Of a stretch of 64,000 nucleotides of DNA, positions 2,358 through 56,226 are shown piece by piece (the first letter of the stretch is position 1; the number at the start of each line of letters is the position of its first letter). A model generated the notes under the pieces. The model saw only the letters and a program-made list of their open reading frames with translations, searched no databases and had not been told where the DNA came from. The stretch lies in NCBI RefSeq assembly GCF_058153355.1, contig NZ_CM177019.1. One strand, written 5' to 3'. Made by a program: the position numbers and the translations under genes.

Positions 2358-3860
2358 TTATTCCACCGCCCACTGCGGATTTTTTGCCACTCTGCTGCAA
2401 TAGTTCTGGTAAATCGCCATCGCTAACAGCGAGAAGAAGACAGGGCCGCCAATCATCCACAATGTGCTGTCCCAGTCTCCGGCTTCAACCACAGGTTGAA
2501 TGATGGTGAAGACGTTCGCAAATGTCACCACCAGTACGACAACCACCGTCGCAATCATTGCCGACATACGCGTTTTGAAAATCACAAACGGTCTGTCGAG
2601 ATCCTGACGTGCTTTAAAGAATGGGAAAGCCAGCGCGAGGAACAAGTAAGGAAGCGTCATAGACACGTTCGCCATCAGCGTCAGCTTGTTAAAGAACGCC
2701 GATGCGGTACCGCCACCAAACGAAACCAGCAGGATGAAGACAGTAACCAACCCGCACTGCATCCACATCGCGATAGATGGCATGCCCATCGCATTCAGCC
2801 GCGTCATCGGTTCCGGCCACAACGCTTTCGGCGTCCCCTGGATGATAGCTTTCAACGGTGAATAGCAAAGCGTAAAGAACGCGCCAGTGTAAGCGAGGAA
2901 CATCGAAAGCCCGGTAATACGCGCAAACCATACACCCAGCGACAATGACGCTTCAGGTGACAAATGCAATGCGTTACCCAGCGTCAACCCGAGGCTCTTC
3001 ATCAGCACATAGGTAATATTGCCGAGGTTAACGGAACCATTACTTAATACCTGCTGCCAGTTTGTGCTGACGCCCCATAAAAATATTGCCAGCGAATAAC
3101 CGATTGAAATAACAATAGCGGCAAAAACAATACCTTTGGCAAAGTTCTTTTCTGGATTTTCCGTTTTATCGACCAGACCACCCACCGCTTCAATTCCGCC
3201 ATAGGCAAAAATGGCAAATACCACAAACGATAGCATCGCCAGACCGGATTGATATCCAGGGTTCGGTGATGCAAGGAAATTAATATCCTGCGCGAAATGC
3301 CCACCGTTTAATAACAAAATAGCAATGCTTACTAACAGCAATACTAAATTAAGACACATTACTGCAATACCGCCCACCGCAGTAATACGGGCAATTTTAT
3401 TAATCCCTTTTGAAGCAACGACGGTGACCAGAATCATCCATGCCACTGCCAGCAGACCAACTACCTGCGTAGGCTCCAGTCCGGCAATACGCCAGTGCTG
3501 GGTCATGTCGCTTCCATAGAGGAATGTTGAGAACGGTACCCAAACTTTAGCGGAGGTGCTCACCATCCAGATGATATAAGAGGAAAACCACATAAACGTA
3601 CCAATGAAGGCAAAACGTGGTCCGACACTATTATTCATCCAGGAATAGATACCGCCTTCTTCTTTGCGATACGCAGCGCCCATTTCAGCCATCATTAAGG
3701 CGAATGGAATAAAGAATAACAATGCAGAAAATATATAAAAGGGAATCGCACTATAACCCATTAAGTAATAAGCCGATGGGCTATTGGCAAATCCAAATAC
3801 GGAAGTAAAGATCATCAATATGAGTCCTATCAGACTCATCTTTTTTATCGTGTGAGGCAT
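2358..3860 (-). CDS. yjeM: APC-family inner membrane transporter YjeM (500 aa)
   Basis: ORF-track frame 2358..3902 trimmed to the Met preceded by AAGGA (MPHTIKKMSLIGLILM…); polytopic membrane protein. Confidence 0.85.
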   Translation of the reverse strand: MPHTIKKMSLIGLILMIFTSVFGFANSPSAYYLMGYSAIPFYIFSALLFFIPFALMMAEMGAAYRKEEGGIYSWMNNSVGPRFAFIGTFMWFSSYIIWMVSTSAKVWVPFSTFLYGSDMTQHWRIAGLEPTQVVGLLAVAWMILVTVVASKGINKIARITAVGGIAVMCLNLVLLLVSIAILLLNGGHFAQDINFLASPNPGYQSGLAMLSFVVFAIFAYGGIEAVGGLVDKTENPEKNFAKGIVFAAIVISIGYSLAIFLWGVSTNWQQVLSNGSVNLGNITYVLMKSLGLTLGNALHLSPEASLSLGVWFARITGLSMFLAYTGAFFTLCYSPLKAIIQGTPKALWPEPMTRLNAMGMPSIAMWMQCGLVTVFILLVSFGGGTASAFFNKLTLMANVSMTLPYLFLALAFPFFKARQDLDRPFVIFKTRMSAMIATVVVVLVVTFANVFTIIQPVVEAGDWDSTLWMIGGPVFFSLLAMAIYQNYCSRVAKNPQWAVE

Positions 3861-4078
3861 GAAACCATCCTTCATTTCAGCGCGTGTATAAAACGCGCCC
3901 ACTGAACTGCACCGCCCAACATTGAGCGGGCAGCGTAAAAACCAATACAGAATTGATACCTGGATGATATCAAATATCCAGTCTTAAATTGTGGCCTTTA
4001 GCGGAAAAATGAAAACATATGCTACAGAATGGCGCTCATCACGCCATTCTTCGCGGTTAATTCAGTAATTTTTCAGAA

Positions 4079-5056
4079 TTATGCCCGGTCAACGCTAAAG
4101 GCGATGACTTCAGCCAGTGTCTCCGCGCCCAGCGCCAACATCACCAGACGATCAACGCCTAATGCCACGCCGGAACAGTCAGGCATACCGACTTTCAAGG
4201 CTTCAATAAGATTCTGGTCAATGGGGTGCTGCGGCAAACCGCGCGCCGCGCGCTTACGGTTATCTTGTTCAAAACGTTGTTGCTGCTCACGGGCATCCGT
4301 CAATTCATGGAAACCATTCGCCAGCTCAATACCTTTATAATAAACCTCAAAGCGTTCAGCGACCCGATGATCTTCGGTACTGATTTGCGCCAGTGATGCC
4401 TGGCTGGCCGGAAAGTGGTACACAAAGGTCGGTTTTTCTTTGCCAATATTTGGCTCTACGCCAAAGGTAAACAGCAGTTGTAACAGCGTGTCGCGGTCTT
4501 CTTCGGTATCGGCAACGTTGCTCAAATCCAGTTTCGCTGCCACTTCCCGCAGTTGCGTTTTGTCGGCAGAGAGCGGGTCAATTTCCAGATAACGCAAGAA
4601 AGCTTGTTGATAAGAAAGACTTTCTGCTGCCGGGCAGTCCAGCACCTGTTGCAAGAGATCGTCCACCTCGTTCATCAACCGGTACATATCATAGTGCGGT
4701 CGATACCACTCCAGCATAGTGAATTCAGGGTTGTGATAACGCCCCATCTCTTCATTACGGAAGCTGCGACACAGCTGGAAAACCGGCCCACAACCGGCAA
4801 CCAGCAGGCGTTTCATATGGTATTCCGGGCTGGTCATTAACCAGAGATTCATCCCCTGCGAATGCCCGGGGCCAACGAAACGCGTCTCAAACGGGACCAA
4901 ATGAATATCGGTTACCGTCGCCTGGCTCATACAAGGCGTCTCCACCTCCAGCACTCCACGATCGGCAAAGAAACGACGGATCTCCGCCATAATCGCCGCG
5001 CGTTTTAATAAGTTAGGAATGGATGCGCTCGGCTGCCAGGATGCCGTTTCGCTCAT
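4079..5056 (-). CDS. epmA: EF-P lysine34 (R)-beta-lysine ligase EpmA (PoxA/YjeA), 325 aa
   Basis: [30 protein letters not shown]… class II LysRS-like catalytic core; ORF-track frame trimmed to the internal Met. Confidence 0.93.
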
Positions 5057-51199: not shown

Positions 51200-52537
51200 A
51201 TGTCTTCGGATGCTGATGCTCACAAAGTGGGCTTAATCCCCGTCACCCTGATGGTGTCGGGGAATATTATGGGGTCAGGTGTTTTTCTGTTACCTGCAAA
51301 CCTGGCCTCCACTGGCGGGATTGCCATTTATGGATGGTTGGTGACGATTATCGGTGCGCTGGGGCTCTCGATGGTATACGCCAAAATGTCGTTCCTCGAC
51401 CCAAGTCCTGGTGGTTCTTACGCTTACGCCCGCCGCTGCTTTGGCCCGTTTCTCGGTTATCAAACCAACGTCCTCTACTGGCTGGCCTGCTGGATCGGCA
51501 ATATCGCCATGGTGGTCATTGGCGTTGGATATTTAAGTTACTTCTTCCCGATTCTGAAAGATCCACTGGTATTAACCATCACCTGCGTCGTGGTGCTGTG
51601 GATCTTCGTCCTGCTGAACATTGTCGGTCCGAAAATGATCACCCGCGTGCAGGCCGTTGCCACCGTGCTGGCGCTGATCCCCATCGTCGGGATTGCCGTA
51701 TTTGGCTGGTTCTGGTTCCGTGGTGAAACCTATATGGCGGCATGGAACGTCAGCGGCCTGGGCACCTTCGGCGCGATTCAAAGTACCCTTAACGTTACGC
51801 TGTGGTCGTTCATCGGTGTGGAAAGTGCCTCCGTTGCCGCAGGTGTGGTGAAAAACCCGAAACGCAACGTCCCTATCGCCACCATTGGTGGGGTATTGAT
51901 TGCCGCCGTTTGCTATGTGCTCTCCACCACCGCGATTATGGGGATGATCCCTAATGCCGCACTGCGCGTTTCTGCCTCGCCATTCGGTGATGCCGCACGG
52001 ATGGCGTTGGGTGACACCGCCGGGGCCATTGTTTCCTTCTGCGCAGCTGCGGGTTGCTTAGGTTCACTGGGCGGCTGGACGTTGCTGGCGGGTCAAACGG
52101 CGAAAGCCGCTGCCGATGACGGGCTGTTCCCACCGATTTTTGCCCGTGTAAACAAAGCGGGTACGCCAGTGGCAGGGCTGATTATCGTCGGTATTTTGAT
52201 GACCATCTTCCAGCTCAGTAGCATTTCGCCAAACGCGACTAAAGAGTTCGGTCTGGTTTCTTCCGTGTCGGTCATCTTTACACTGGTGCCATATCTTTAC
52301 ACCTGTGCGGCGTTACTGCTGCTCGGCCACGGTCACTTTGGTAAAGCACGCCGGGCATATCTGGCAGTTACTACCATTGCCTTCCTCTACTGCATCTGGG
52401 CCGTGGTGGGGTCCGGGGCGAAAGAGGTTATGTGGTCATTTGTCACCCTGATGGTCATCACCGCCATGTATGCGCTGAATTACAACCGGCTGCATAAAAA
52501 CCCGTATCCCTTAGATGCACCAATAAGCAAAGATTAA
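51200..52537 (+). CDS. adiC: Arginine:agmatine antiporter AdiC
   Basis: 445-aa APC-family [40 protein letters not shown]…; paralogous to cadB. Confidence 0.97.
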
Positions 52538-52577
52538 TTCCCCTTAATCCAGCAAACATAAAAGCCAACCTTAAGAA

Positions 52578-52594
52578 CTTAAGGTTGGCTTAAT
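52578..52594 (+). promoter_or_regulatory. PmrA (BasR) box upstream of eptA: CTTAAG-N5-CTTAAT
   Basis: CTTAAGGTTGGCTTAAT about 45 bp upstream of eptA start; a further CTTAAG half-site lies immediately upstream. Confidence 0.7.
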
Positions 52595-52640
52595 TTTGCT
52601 TTGCGAGCATATGCGCACTTTGTTCGATGGAAACACCGTG

Positions 52641-54284
52641 ATGTTGAAGCGCCTACTAAAAAGACCCTCTTTGAATTTACTCGCCTGGCTATTGTTGGCC
52701 GCTTTTTATATCTCTATCTGCCTGAATATTGCCTTTTTTAAACAGGTGTTGCAGGCGCTGCCGCTGGACTCGCTGCATAACGTACTGGTTTTCTTGTCGA
52801 TGCCGGTCGTCGCTTTCAGCGTGATTAATATTGTCCTGACACTAAGCTCTTTCTTATGGCTTAATCGACCGCTGGCCTGCCTGTTTATTCTGGTTGGCGC
52901 GGCTGCACAATATTTCATAATGACTTACGGCATCGTCATCGACCGCTCGATGATTGCCAATATTATTGATACCACCCCAGCAGAAAGTTATGCGCTGATG
53001 ACACCGCAAATGTTATTAACGCTGGGATTCAGCGGCGTGCTTGCTGCGCTGATTGCCTGCTGGATTAAAATCAAACCTGCCACCTCGCGCCTGCGCAGTG
53101 TTCTTTTCCGTGGAGCCAATATTCTGGTTTCTGTGCTCCTGATTCTGCTGGTCGCCGCACTGTTTTATAAAGACTACGCCTCGCTGTTTCGCAACAACAA
53201 AGAGCTGGTGAAGTCCTTAAGCCCCTCTAACAGCATTGTTGCCAGCTGGTCATGGTACTCCCATCAGCGACTGGCAAATCTGCCGCTGGTGCGAATTGGT
53301 GAAGACGCGCACCGCAACCCGTTAATGCAGAACGAGAAACGTAAAAATTTGACCATTTTGATTGTCGGCGAAACCTCGCGGGCGGAGAACTTCTCCCTCA
53401 ACGGCTACCCGCGTGAAACTAACCCGCGGCTGGCGAAAGATAACGTGGTCTATTTCCCTAATACCGCATCTTGCGGCACGGCAACGGCAGTTTCAGTACC
53501 GTGCATGTTCTCGGATATGCCGCGTGAGCATTACAAAGAAGAGTTGGCACAGCACCAGGAAGGCGTGCTGGATATCATTCAGCGAGCGGGCATCAACGTG
53601 CTGTGGAATGACAACGATGGTGGCTGCAAAGGTGCCTGCGATCGCGTGCCTCACCAGAACGTCACTGCGCTGAACCTGCCTGGTCAGTGTATCAACGGCG
53701 AATGTTATGACGAAGTGCTTTTCCACGGGCTGGAAGAGTACATCAATAACCTGCAAGGTGATGGCGTAATTGTCTTACACACCATCGGCAGTCACGGCCC
53801 GACCTATTACAATCGCTATCCGCCACAGTTCAGGAAATTTACCCCTACCTGCGACACCAACGAGATCCAGACCTGTACCCAAGAGCAACTGGTGAACACT
53901 TACGACAACACGCTGGTCTACGTCGACTATATTGTTGATAAAGCGATTAATCTACTGAAAGAACATCAGGATAAATTTACCACCAGCCTGGTTTATCTTT
54001 CTGACCACGGTGAATCGTTAGGTGAAAATGGCATCTATCTGCACGGTTTGCCTTATGCCATCGCCCCGGATAGCCAAAAACAGGTGCCGATGCTGCTGTG
54101 GCTGTCTGAGGATTATCAAAAACGGTATCAGGTTGACCAAAGTTGCCTACAGAAACAGGCGCAAACGCAACACTATTCACAAGACAATTTATTCTCCACG
54201 CTATTGGGATTAACTGGCGTTGAGACGAAGTATTACCAGGCTGCGGATGATATTCTGCAAACTTGCAGGAGAGTGAGTGAATGA
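52641..54284 (+). CDS. eptA: Lipid A phosphoethanolamine transferase EptA (PmrC), 547 aa
   Basis: [33 protein letters not shown]…; N-terminal TM domain plus sulfatase-like periplasmic domain. Confidence 0.96.
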
Positions 54285-54949
54285 AAATTCTGATTGTTGA
54301 AGACGATACGCTGTTATTGCAGGGATTGATTCTGGCGGCGCAAACCGAAGGCTACGCGTGCGATGGCGTGACAACCGCGCGGATGGCGGAACAAAGCCTT
54401 GAGACCGGTCATTACAGCCTGGTGGTACTGGATTTAGGGTTACCCGACGAAGATGGGCTGCATTTTCTCGCCCGAATCCGGCAGAAAAAATACACCCTGC
54501 CGGTGTTAATTCTCACCGCCCGCGATACCCTTACCGACAAAATCGCCGGGCTGGATGTCGGTGCCGATGACTACCTGGTGAAGCCTTTTGCGCTGGAAGA
54601 GTTACATGCCCGTATCCGCGCCCTGCTACGACGCCATAATAATCAGGGTGAAAGTGAGCTGATTGTTGGCAATCTGACGCTGAATATGGGTCGCCGTCAG
54701 GTATGGATGGGCAGTGAAGAGTTGATTCTGACGCCCAAAGAATATGCTCTGCTATCACGGTTAATGCTCAAAGCAGGCAGTCCGGTGCATCGGGAAATTC
54801 TCTACAACGACATCTATAACTGGGACAATGAACCCTCGACCAACACCCTGGAAGTGCATATCCACAATCTGCGCGACAAAGTGGGCAAAGCCCGTATCCG
54901 CACCGTGCGCGGCTTTGGCTATATGCTGGTCGCGAATGAGGAAAACTAA
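54281..54949 (+). CDS. basR: Response regulator BasR (PmrA)
   Basis: 222-aa OmpR-family [40 protein letters not shown]…; ATGA overlap with eptA stop. Confidence 0.97.
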
Positions 54950-54958
54950 TTGAATCTG

Positions 54959-56050
54959 ATGCGTTTTCTGCGCCGACCAATATCGCTGCGCCAACGGCTG
55001 ATATTGACCATCGGGGCCATTTTGTTGGTGTTTGAGCTGATCAGCGTCTTCTGGCTATGGCATGAAAGTACCGAGCAGATTCAGCTGTTTGAGCAGGCGC
55101 TACGCGACAATCGTAACAACGATCGCCACATCATGCGTGAGATCCGCGAGGCGGTCGCCAGCCTGATTGTCCCTGGCGTCTTTATGGTCAGCCTGACGCT
55201 ATTTATCTGCTATCAGGCGGTACGCCGCATCACCCGCCCGCTGGCGGAGCTGCAAAAAGAGCTGGAAGCGCGCACCGCCGACAACTTAACGCCCATTGCC
55301 ATTCACAGCGCCACCCTCGAAATCGAAGCGGTGGTTTCAGCGTTAAACGATCTGGTCAGTCGCCTGACCAACACGCTGGATAACGAAAGGTTGTTTACCG
55401 CTGACGTCGCGCACGAACTGCGAACGCCACTGGCGGGGGTGCGTTTGCATCTGGAACTGCTGGCGAAAACGCATCACATTGATGTAGCACCGTTAGTGGC
55501 ACGACTTGATCAGATGATGGAGAGTGTCTCCCAGCTACTGCAACTGGCGCGTGCCGGACAGTCATTTTCTTCCGGTAATTATCAACATGTAAAACTGCTG
55601 GAAGATGTCATTCTCCCCTCGTATGACGAACTCAGTACCATGCTCGACCAGCGCCAGCAAACCCTGCTATTGCCAGAGAGCGCCGCCGACATCACCGTTC
55701 AGGGTGATGCAACCCTGCTGCGGATGTTATTGCGAAACCTGGTAGAAAACGCCCATCGTTACAGCCCGCAAGGCAGCAACATTATGATTAAGCTGCAAGA
55801 CGATGGCGGAGCGGTCATGGCCGTTGAAGATGAAGGGCCGGGTATTGATGAGAGTAAATGTGGAGAGTTGAGTAAAGCGTTTGTACGAATGGACAGCCGT
55901 TATGGCGGGATTGGTCTGGGGTTAAGTATTGTCAGCCGCATTACACAGTTGCATCACGGGCAGTTTTTCCTGCAAAACCGGCAAGAGACTTCTGGCACAC
56001 GGGCCTGGATACGGCTGAAAAAAGATCAGTACGTGGCAAACCAGATATAA
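54959..56050 (+). CDS. basS: Sensor histidine kinase BasS (PmrB), 363 aa
   Basis: MRFLRRPISLRQRLILTIGAILLVFELISVFWLWHES…; H-box ADVAHELRTPL; the ORF track used an upstream TTG. Confidence 0.95.
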   Translation: MRFLRRPISLRQRLILTIGAILLVFELISVFWLWHESTEQIQLFEQALRDNRNNDRHIMREIREAVASLIVPGVFMVSLTLFICYQAVRRITRPLAELQKELEARTADNLTPIAIHSATLEIEAVVSALNDLVSRLTNTLDNERLFTADVAHELRTPLAGVRLHLELLAKTHHIDVAPLVARLDQMMESVSQLLQLARAGQSFSSGNYQHVKLLEDVILPSYDELSTMLDQRQQTLLLPESAADITVQGDATLLRMLLRNLVENAHRYSPQGSNIMIKLQDDGGAVMAVEDEGPGIDESKCGELSKAFVRMDSRYGGIGLGLSIVSRITQLHHGQFFLQNRQETSGTRAWIRLKKDQYVANQI

Positions 56051-56115
56051 AGAAAGCTGCTGACCACCAGCACGCTGAACACGGTAGTTAAACTTTCATA
56101 AACACGGTTTTTCAT
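56026..56115 (-). CDS. pmrR: Small membrane peptide PmrR (29 aa), antisense to and overlapping the basS 3' end
   Basis: Hand-translated minus-strand ORF MKNRVYESLTTVFSVLVVSSFLYIWFATY*; strong RBS GGAGGAG 7 nt upstream; PmrA box just upstream. Confidence 0.8.
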   Translation of the reverse strand: MKNRVYESLTTVFSVLVVSSFLYIWFATY

Positions 56116-56159
56116 TGCACTCTCCTCCGTTAACCTGGAGGAGAGTATGCGCGTCAGAG

Positions 56160-56176
56160 ATTAAGTGAACCTTAAG
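56160..56176 (-). promoter_or_regulatory. PmrA (BasR) box upstream of pmrR: CTTAAG-N5-CTTAAT on the minus strand
   Basis: Minus-strand read CTTAAGGTTCACTTAAT, about 45 bp upstream of the pmrR ATG. Confidence 0.7.
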
Positions 56177-56226
56177 AGTTCAATTGGCCTAATAAGACAG
56201 CGTCACATCAGGCCATCCGTTTCAGC

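Follow-up and report, generated by a model that had tools for sequence, protein, structure and literature searches.

A BasR (PmrA) box in front of eptA-basR-basS in Escherichia coli and a putative adiC terminator superimposed on it

The window, meaning the whole stretch of 64,000 nucleotides that was analysed, is a piece of an Escherichia coli chromosome in which adiA, adiY, adiC, eptA, basR, and basS follow each other on the plus strand; the minus strand carries pmrR and proP. The arginine:agmatine antiporter is encoded by adiC (51200–52537, +). It is followed in the same orientation by eptA (also pmrC or yjdB; 52641–54284, +), which encodes a lipid A phosphoethanolamine transferase of 547 residues, by basR (pmrA; 54281–54949, +), encoding a response regulator of 222 residues, and by basS (pmrB; 54950–56050, +), encoding the sensor kinase and starting either at TTG 54950 (366 residues) or at ATG 54959 (363 residues). 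The gene pmrR (56026–56115, −) encodes a 29-residue LpxT modulator identical to that of K-12; it is convergent with basS and overlaps its 3′ end. The ATG of eptA at 52641 is the start called by PGAP in a genome with 99.8% identity as well as in K-12, and the TTG at 52596 in the list of open reading frames only extends the same frame upstream. Between adiC and eptA, the sequence does not differ from that of K-12 MG1655; hence, the K-12 literature is directly applicable.

Within this intergenic region, which reads AAAAGCCAACCTTAAGAACTTAAGGTTGGCTTAATTTTGCTTTGCGAGCATATGCGCAC...GTGATG around the element, CTTAAGGTTGGCTTAAT is found at exactly 52578–52594 on the plus strand. The original prediction of a PmrA box at this place, with an extra CTTAAG upstream, is thus right to the base. 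The box is a direct repeat, CTTAAG-GTTGG-CTTAAT, with half-sites at 52578–52583 and 52589–52594 and, hence, a period of 11 bp. Its end lies 46 nt from the eptA ATG, where about 45 bp had been predicted. The experimentally derived PmrA box is CTTAAG-N5-xTTAAT (PMC3973317), and the site matches it exactly; the consensus YTTAAK-N5-YTTAAK is also given in bioRxiv 10.1101/2023.04.06.535820. A scan of the 64-kb window with this consensus pattern yields two exact matches, compared with 0.19 expected, and the same two sites are still the only ones if one mismatch to CTTAAK-N5-CTTAAT is permitted. The second is CTTAAGGTTCACTTAAT at 56160–56176 (−), 44 nt before the ATG of pmrR. Both matches are therefore located 44–46 nt 5′ of genes known to be regulated by BasR, and the proposal that the two BasR-controlled promoters of the window have the box in common holds. 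For E. coli, binding of phosphorylated BasR to the eptA promoter has been reported (PMC9396075), and the constitutive alleles basS A20D and basR G53V induce an eptA-lacZ fusion (PMC8151780). Taken together, this supports the assignment of the 17-bp element as the BasR (PmrA) box of the eptA-basR-basS promoter, a site that is already known; judged by its sequence, it is the E. coli ortholog of the PmrA box of Salmonella pmrCAB.

A second, box-like tandem, ATTAAT-tccc-CTTAAT, is situated at 52533–52548 and overlaps the adiC stop; its spacer has 4 bp, not 5. The equivalent in Escherichia sp. E1V33, ATTAAG-TCCCC-CTTAAT, has the canonical 5-bp spacing. This tandem may be either a weak BasR site further upstream or a chance occurrence.

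The downstream side of the box shows a constant geometry. A predicted extended −10 element, TGcGAGCAT, spans 52602–52610 (+), with the hexamer at 52605–52610. When the loci are anchored on the box without gaps, a hexamer nAnnAT appears exactly 10 nt 3′ of it in 54 of 57 loci, usually with TGn directly 5′, its form being GAGCAT in E. coli, GAGGAT in Citrobacter, CACGAT in Salmonella, and CAGCAT in Klebsiella and Kluyvera. The invariant columns in an alignment of 56 sequences comprise box positions together with A52606 and T52610 (12 and 16 nt past the box), and A52609 and G52603 are conserved to at least 90%. The E. coli hexamer GAGCAT agrees with only three of the six consensus −10 positions, and no TTGACA-like −35 is present at the eptA promoter. 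A generic sigma-70 scan detected no promoter at the eptA spacer; a match is not expected, because the promoter is presumably activator-dependent and lacks a −35. The order of box, 10 nt, and hexamer is common to pmrR (CATACT) and K-12 arnB (TAAAAT). These alignments support the view that the box takes the place of the −35, the classical signature of a promoter dependent on phosphorylated BasR. From the −10 hexamer, we infer a transcription start of eptA near 52617 (52616–52618, +), approximately 7 nt past the hexamer, with a 5′ UTR of approximately 24 nt. The box would hence occupy about −39 to −23, in agreement with the segment of about −38 to −20 in which a structure comparison of PmrA–DNA complexes places the pmra-box (PMC10570014). 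The same work describes the box as overlapping the −35 of the pbgP, ugd, and pmrCAB promoters and presents a cryo-EM complex of the dimer with RNA polymerase. Hence, every sequence-level feature of a pmra-box promoter is found at this locus, the predicted binding being taken from the literature and the start site from the position of the −10.

For comparison across genera, the upstream regions of 60 loci with EptA relatives were collected from species-representative genomes; 56 of them are orthologous eptA/pmrC upstream regions from approximately 10 genera, ranging from Escherichia to Tatumella. The box lies 44–48 nt from the ATG in 54 of the 56 scored loci. These include Escherichia, Salmonella, Citrobacter, Klebsiella, Raoultella, Kluyvera, Enterobacter, and Intestinirhabdus, as well as most Pantoea and Tatumella morbirosei. 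In Tatumella saanichensis (L046), the distance is 50 nt, and in Pantoea sp. RIT (L043), the top-scoring match is located 244 nt upstream, with a box-like ATTAAGGTTCACTTAAC at 46 nt. The upstream region of the distant Zooshikella locus (L060) contains no box. Hardly any variation is seen in half-site 1 (CTTAAG) or in the GTT after it. Half-site 2 reads CTTAAT or CTTAAC in Escherichia, Citrobacter, and Salmonella, and the Klebsiella/Kluyvera group has CTTAAA instead. The neighboring gene varies: adiC precedes eptA only in Escherichia, Salmonella, and most Citrobacter, and a CofD-family gene takes this position in Klebsiella, Kluyvera, and related genera. Since the box is kept where the CofD-family gene replaces adiC, it belongs to eptA and not to adiC. 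Conservation in orthologous eptA promoters, on which the original prediction had staked the motif, is thus found with and without the adiC neighbor, and the identity of the PmrA box follows from the exact consensus, the fixed distance to the ATG across genera, and the conserved −10.

Within E. coli, two segments were compared, namely the promoter with the hairpin described below (52550–52645) and the 1 kb around it (52100–53100). Of 5411 genomes, 4786 have the 96-bp promoter segment at 99% identity or more; over the surrounding 1 kb, only 97 of 5412 genomes reach this level, and 984 lie in the band of 90–95%. The coding sequence is, hence, unusually divergent among E. coli, and the near-invariance of the promoter segment indicates strong purifying selection. 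These data also bear on the reading of the box as a chance motif in AT-rich intergenic DNA without any regulatory role. It draws on the finding that 2 of 100 shuffles of the 64-kb window likewise gave two consensus matches, but both real matches are positioned 44–46 nt upstream of the window's two known BasR-regulated genes, and the box is conserved across genera and nearly invariant among approximately 5400 E. coli genomes. We regard the probability of a chance motif as practically negligible; it is rejected because of statistics, placement, and conservation and is effectively refuted by the conservation data.

One strain displays a disruption of the locus. E. coli strain 1506 (NZ_CP059288.1, locus at 3550–4320) carries an IS1 element directly 3′ of the PmrA box and has lost the −10 region together with the 5′ end of eptA, which has the annotation of a pseudogene in this strain. 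Its basR and pmrB are intact but cut off from the BasR-dependent promoter.

The box is at the same time part of a second structure. A perfect 13-bp inverted repeat, AAGCCAACCTTAA-GAAC-TTAAGGTTGGCTT, extends over 52562–52591 (+); it starts 25 nt past the stop of adiC and overlaps the box with its 3′ arm. The stem of 13 bp contains five G-C pairs and is closed by a 4-nt loop, with the tail AAUUUUGCUU. The U-rich tail AATTTTGCTTT at 52592–52602 (+) is also the spacer between the box and the −10; two A residues separate the stem from the U-tract, a point that speaks against termination. The stem-loop folds as RNA with −18.8 kcal/mol (z = −5.0; none of 200 shuffles is as stable) and with −23.2 kcal/mol in a longer context. 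A terminator scan finds the hairpin on both strands, and it is the only hairpin in the adiC–eptA spacer of Escherichia, which measures 103–105 nt. The same bases thus serve as BasR box and as one half of a terminator-like hairpin, a circumstance missed in the first reading of the sequence.

As in intrinsic terminators, a stem-loop and a U-rich tract are found 3′ of the stop of a co-oriented gene, and we consider the hairpin to be probably the intrinsic terminator of adiC in Escherichia and some Citrobacter. Acid and anaerobiosis induce adiC, which is not expressed in aerobic LB or M63. The K-12 Term-seq tables, which derive from aerobic cultures in LB or M63 (Adams et al. 2021), list neither an adiC nor an eptA 3′ end; because adiC is uninduced in those media, the absence of its 3′ end is uninformative. 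Across species, the hairpin is strong, with −16 to −28 kcal/mol over a 57-nt test segment, in Escherichia and in some lineages of Citrobacter (C. amalonaticus, C. sedlakii, C. werkmanii, and C. gillenii). Salmonella (z = 0.24) and the C. freundii complex have a weak hairpin or none at this place, and their longer spacers of 131–147 nt contain another, GC-rich hairpin; in Klebsiella, the hairpin on the box is weak. The candidate of a universal promoter feature is hence rejected for the hairpin, given its absence in Salmonella and its weakness in Klebsiella. A REP-like repeated or mobile element was likewise considered for the palindrome and rejected, as it is single-copy (median of one place per E. 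coli genome) and without a match in Rfam.

Covariation of the stem is no more than moderate and is confounded by phylogeny. In the pair count, 76% of the cells are paired, and some double changes are seen that are tied to lineage. The outer three pairs exist in only approximately 40–60% of the sequences, and the inner four pairs are formed by TTAA, which is self-complementary and nearly invariant and, thus, carries little covariation information. A suggestive compensatory change occurs in three Citrobacter loci (L014, L016, and L054), where a G-to-T change in the box, giving CTTAAT as half-site 1, is accompanied by a C-to-A change upstream; this restores a pair that is an A-G mismatch in relatives. 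As a separate observation, the palindrome is extended in three loci of C. amalonaticus and C. gillenii (L007, L010, and L019) such that, 30 nt upstream, the minus strand reads as a full PmrA box (CTTAATGTTGGCTTAAT in L007), which makes two overlapping, divergent boxes. The minus-strand copy in E. coli comprises half-site 1 only.

The stability, perfection, and correct placement of the hairpin after adiC, together with the lack of a generic sigma-70 promoter in the spacer, could also be read such that the palindrome is the adiC intrinsic terminator only, its likeness to a PmrA box being incidental and eptA being driven from elsewhere. This is very improbable. Salmonella keeps the box at equal distance from eptA without the hairpin, Klebsiella, Kluyvera, and Raoultella keep it without an adiC neighbor, the conserved −10 has the spacing of arnB and pmrR, and a pmra-box is described for the pmrCAB promoter in the literature (PMC10570014). 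A BasR-box promoter with a probable adiC terminator superimposed on it is, as a whole, the best explanation of the locus, and we hold it to be highly probable.

Compared with known systems, the closest is the orthologous site of Salmonella enterica pmrCAB, CTTAAG-GTTCA-CTTAAT (L008 and L009), with identical hexamers and a 5-bp spacer. It shares with the window the 46 nt to the ATG, the 10 nt between box and −10, and an equivalent downstream operon. Differences concern the box spacer (GTTGG in the window, GTTCA or GTTTG in Salmonella), the length of the adiC–pmrC spacer (131 nt as opposed to 103 nt), and the hairpin, as Salmonella has a separate GC-rich hairpin and, unlike the window, no stable one built on the box. 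The arnB/pbgP promoter, known from a crystal structure (4S05) and cryo-EM and with its activation mechanism described (PMC10570014), likewise has a tandem of two hexamers, with a period of 11 bp, in place of the −35. In K-12, the arnB box CTTAAGGTTAAGTTAAT is followed by 10 nt and TAAAAT, a spacing like that of the window. However, the −10 of arnB is near consensus and the GAGCAT of eptA is weak, and arnB, unlike eptA, has no overlapping terminator hairpin. The half-sites of Klebsiella pbgP are CTTAAT and CCTAAG. With regard to the hairpin, Rho-independent terminators that overlap the next promoter where intergenic regions are compact offer a parallel, as they also consist of a stem-loop and U-tract just after a stop codon, with a U-rich or AT-rich tail that is reused as promoter. 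In the window, by comparison, the reused part is a transcription factor–binding site that serves as the whole 3′ arm, and the terminator is putative.

The extra CTTAAG noted upstream of the box is indeed present at 52570–52575 (+), separated from the box by AA and forming the inner part of the 5′ arm of the hairpin. It does not, however, qualify as a canonical third half-site, since its spacing is 8 bp as opposed to 11. Its TTAA core (52571–52574), 3 nt before the box, is found in all 27 adiC-linked loci and in 25 of 30 others (52 of 57), the loci without it belonging to Pantoea and Tatumella. The sequence just 5′ of this TTAA is unconserved. At the same offset, arnB and pmrR have ATTAGT and ATTGAA, respectively. 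The family-wide footprint thus reads TTAA-N3-CTTAAGGTTGkCTTAAw, with 24 bp compared with the canonical 17, and it is also seen without adiC or an extended hairpin. A QseB site was considered for the third TTAA and rejected, as the QseB consensus G(C/T)(G/A)ACAAT(A/T)A-N4-TT is dissimilar.

One conceivable account is a larger unit, in which the promoter would depend on the upstream TTAA (predicted at −46 to −43). This TTAA might act in docking of the alpha-CTD in an UP-like manner or by accommodating an additional or repositioned BasR domain, or the inverted-repeat symmetry ACCTTAA-N4-TTAAGGT could matter at the level of DNA. The occurrence of TTAA at the exact offset in 52 of 57 loci, 25 of them without adiC or the extended hairpin, is in line with this, as are the ATTAGT and ATTGAA of arnB and pmrR at equal offset, although these matches are imperfect. 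Furthermore, the DNA-binding domains of PmrA shift approximately 3 bp upstream in the activation complex, and an upstream AT-rich segment is part of the scaffold of that complex (PMC10570014). Conversely, the 8-bp spacing misfits the 11-bp period of tandem binding in the OmpR/PhoB family, Pantoea and Tatumella do without the element, and TTAA is self-complementary, so that any such element resembles an inverted repeat. A required element is, on balance, somewhat unlikely. Likewise unlikely is a wider reading, in which this 24-bp unit and the hairpin built on the box would together make up an additional layer of control. The preferred reading stays with the 17-bp box as promoter element and a probable adiC terminator superimposed on it.

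Downstream of the promoter, the gene layout agrees with an operon, since eptA, basR, and basS are co-oriented and tightly linked and a promoter of their own regulator lies upstream. The predicted ATGA overlap of the eptA stop and the basR start is found at 54281–54284. The predicted 9-bp gap between basR and basS is equally found, as 9 nt between the basR stop at 54949 and the K-12–style ATG at 54959; with the PGAP start at TTG 54950, no gap remains after basR. GAGGAA is located 5 nt upstream of this TTG, and the choice of the basS start shifts the residue numbering for resistance substitutions. On the plus strand from the eptA start to the basS stop, no terminator-like site is found past the first 60 nt of eptA, which hold the sole match, a weak 6-bp stem. 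Promoter-like matches inside the operon are at chance level in a consensus scan. The order eptA-basR-basS is kept in almost all orthologous loci. Reportedly, a weaker internal pmrAB promoter is located inside pmrC of Salmonella (Gunn and Miller; Wosten and Groisman). Of the single autoregulated operon that had been proposed, the tight linkage and the lack of a strong internal terminator thus stand, and the word single is unproven.

The proteins encoded differ little from those of K-12. BasR shows S29G, A42T, and G145S; BasS shows H2R, S138N, E281D, D283G, and V351I; and EptA shows the three substitutions D348G, K414Q, and N501S. Among the positions that experiments associate with colistin resistance are G53 of BasR and L10 and A159 of BasS (PMC7067592), and A20 of BasS is tied to colistin resistance as well (PMC8151780). 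In the comparison of basR and basS with K-12, no substitution falls on any of these four positions. We read the differences in BasR and BasS as probable lineage polymorphisms.

The pmrR promoter resembles that of eptA in its hexamers, in CTTAAGGTT, which both have in common, and in the 10 nt between box and hexamer (here CATACT), with 44 nt to the ATG. It has no upstream complementary arm; instead, a hairpin of 9–10 bp is present in the 5′ UTR and includes the Shine-Dalgarno sequence. This hairpin is formed by a perfect 9-bp inverted repeat, CTCTCCTCC-aggttaac-GGAGGAGAG, within 56115–56160 (−), between the −10–like hexamer and the ATG; its predicted fold has 10 pairs and −19.9 kcal/mol (z = −3.6). 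Just past it, at the first base of the pmrR ATG, K-12 Term-seq shows a 3′ end at 4332116(+) (Adams 2021, supplementary file 1). This suggests a short pmrR 5′-UTR RNA or premature termination or processing. In addition, the Rfam family STnc630, an enterobacterial "sRNA," matches 56019–56184 (−) with 182 bits and covers the promoter, the 5′ UTR, and the coding region of pmrR; the sRNA appears to be the pmrR mRNA. A REP-like element, GGCCTGATGTGACGCTGTCTTATTAGGCC, is located at 56186–56214 (−), just 3′ of the proP stop and directly 5′ of the pmrR box. In a 2021 study (PMC8004244), colistin resistance of BL21(DE3) was found to depend critically on the region 3′ of pmrB, and pmrR is discussed there. 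The primers DS126 and DS134 of its deletion series end exactly on the pmrR PmrA box (56160–56176), and a text search of the study gave no match to "PmrA box" or "PmrA-binding."

Combining these data with what the literature provides on BasR/PmrA binding, on the overlap of the box with the −35, and on head-to-tail recognition, the locus would work as follows. A dimer of phosphorylated BasR would bind the CTTAAG/CTTAAT direct repeat with its DNA-binding domains in head-to-tail arrangement. Since a −35 is missing and the box stands in its position, BasR would contact region 4 of sigma-70 and the beta/beta′ subunits, and these contacts would let RNA polymerase use the weak extended −10 TGcGAGCAT 10 nt downstream. 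Transcription would then run from about 52617 through eptA, basR, and basS, the output being positive autoregulation and phosphoethanolamine modification of lipid A. The identical arrangement on the other strand would drive pmrR. In Escherichia and some Citrobacter, 52562–52575 forms a perfect complement of the box, so that the adiC transcript would fold into the 13-bp hairpin followed by the U-rich tract. Most probably, the hairpin would end adiC transcription and shield eptA-basRS from adiC read-through.

The site controls the chromosomal phosphoethanolamine modification of lipid A as well as the level of BasRS, and the pathway underlies non-mcr colistin resistance in E. coli. Its confirmation adds nothing new to the known regulation and demonstrates that a real regulatory site can be recognized from sequence alone. 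Modest additions, which would not surprise specialists, are the overlap with a terminator-like hairpin and the conservation of a third TTAA. They have a practical side for promoter engineering or mutation, since alterations within 52562–52575 may disturb adiC termination, and any change to the box will also change the hairpin. If the third TTAA were a required contact of the alpha-CTD or of a shifted BasR domain, or if BasR occupancy and adiC termination interacted, this would represent an undescribed layer of control. Arginine-dependent acid resistance would then be linked to lipid A remodelling, two systems that are both acid-responsive.
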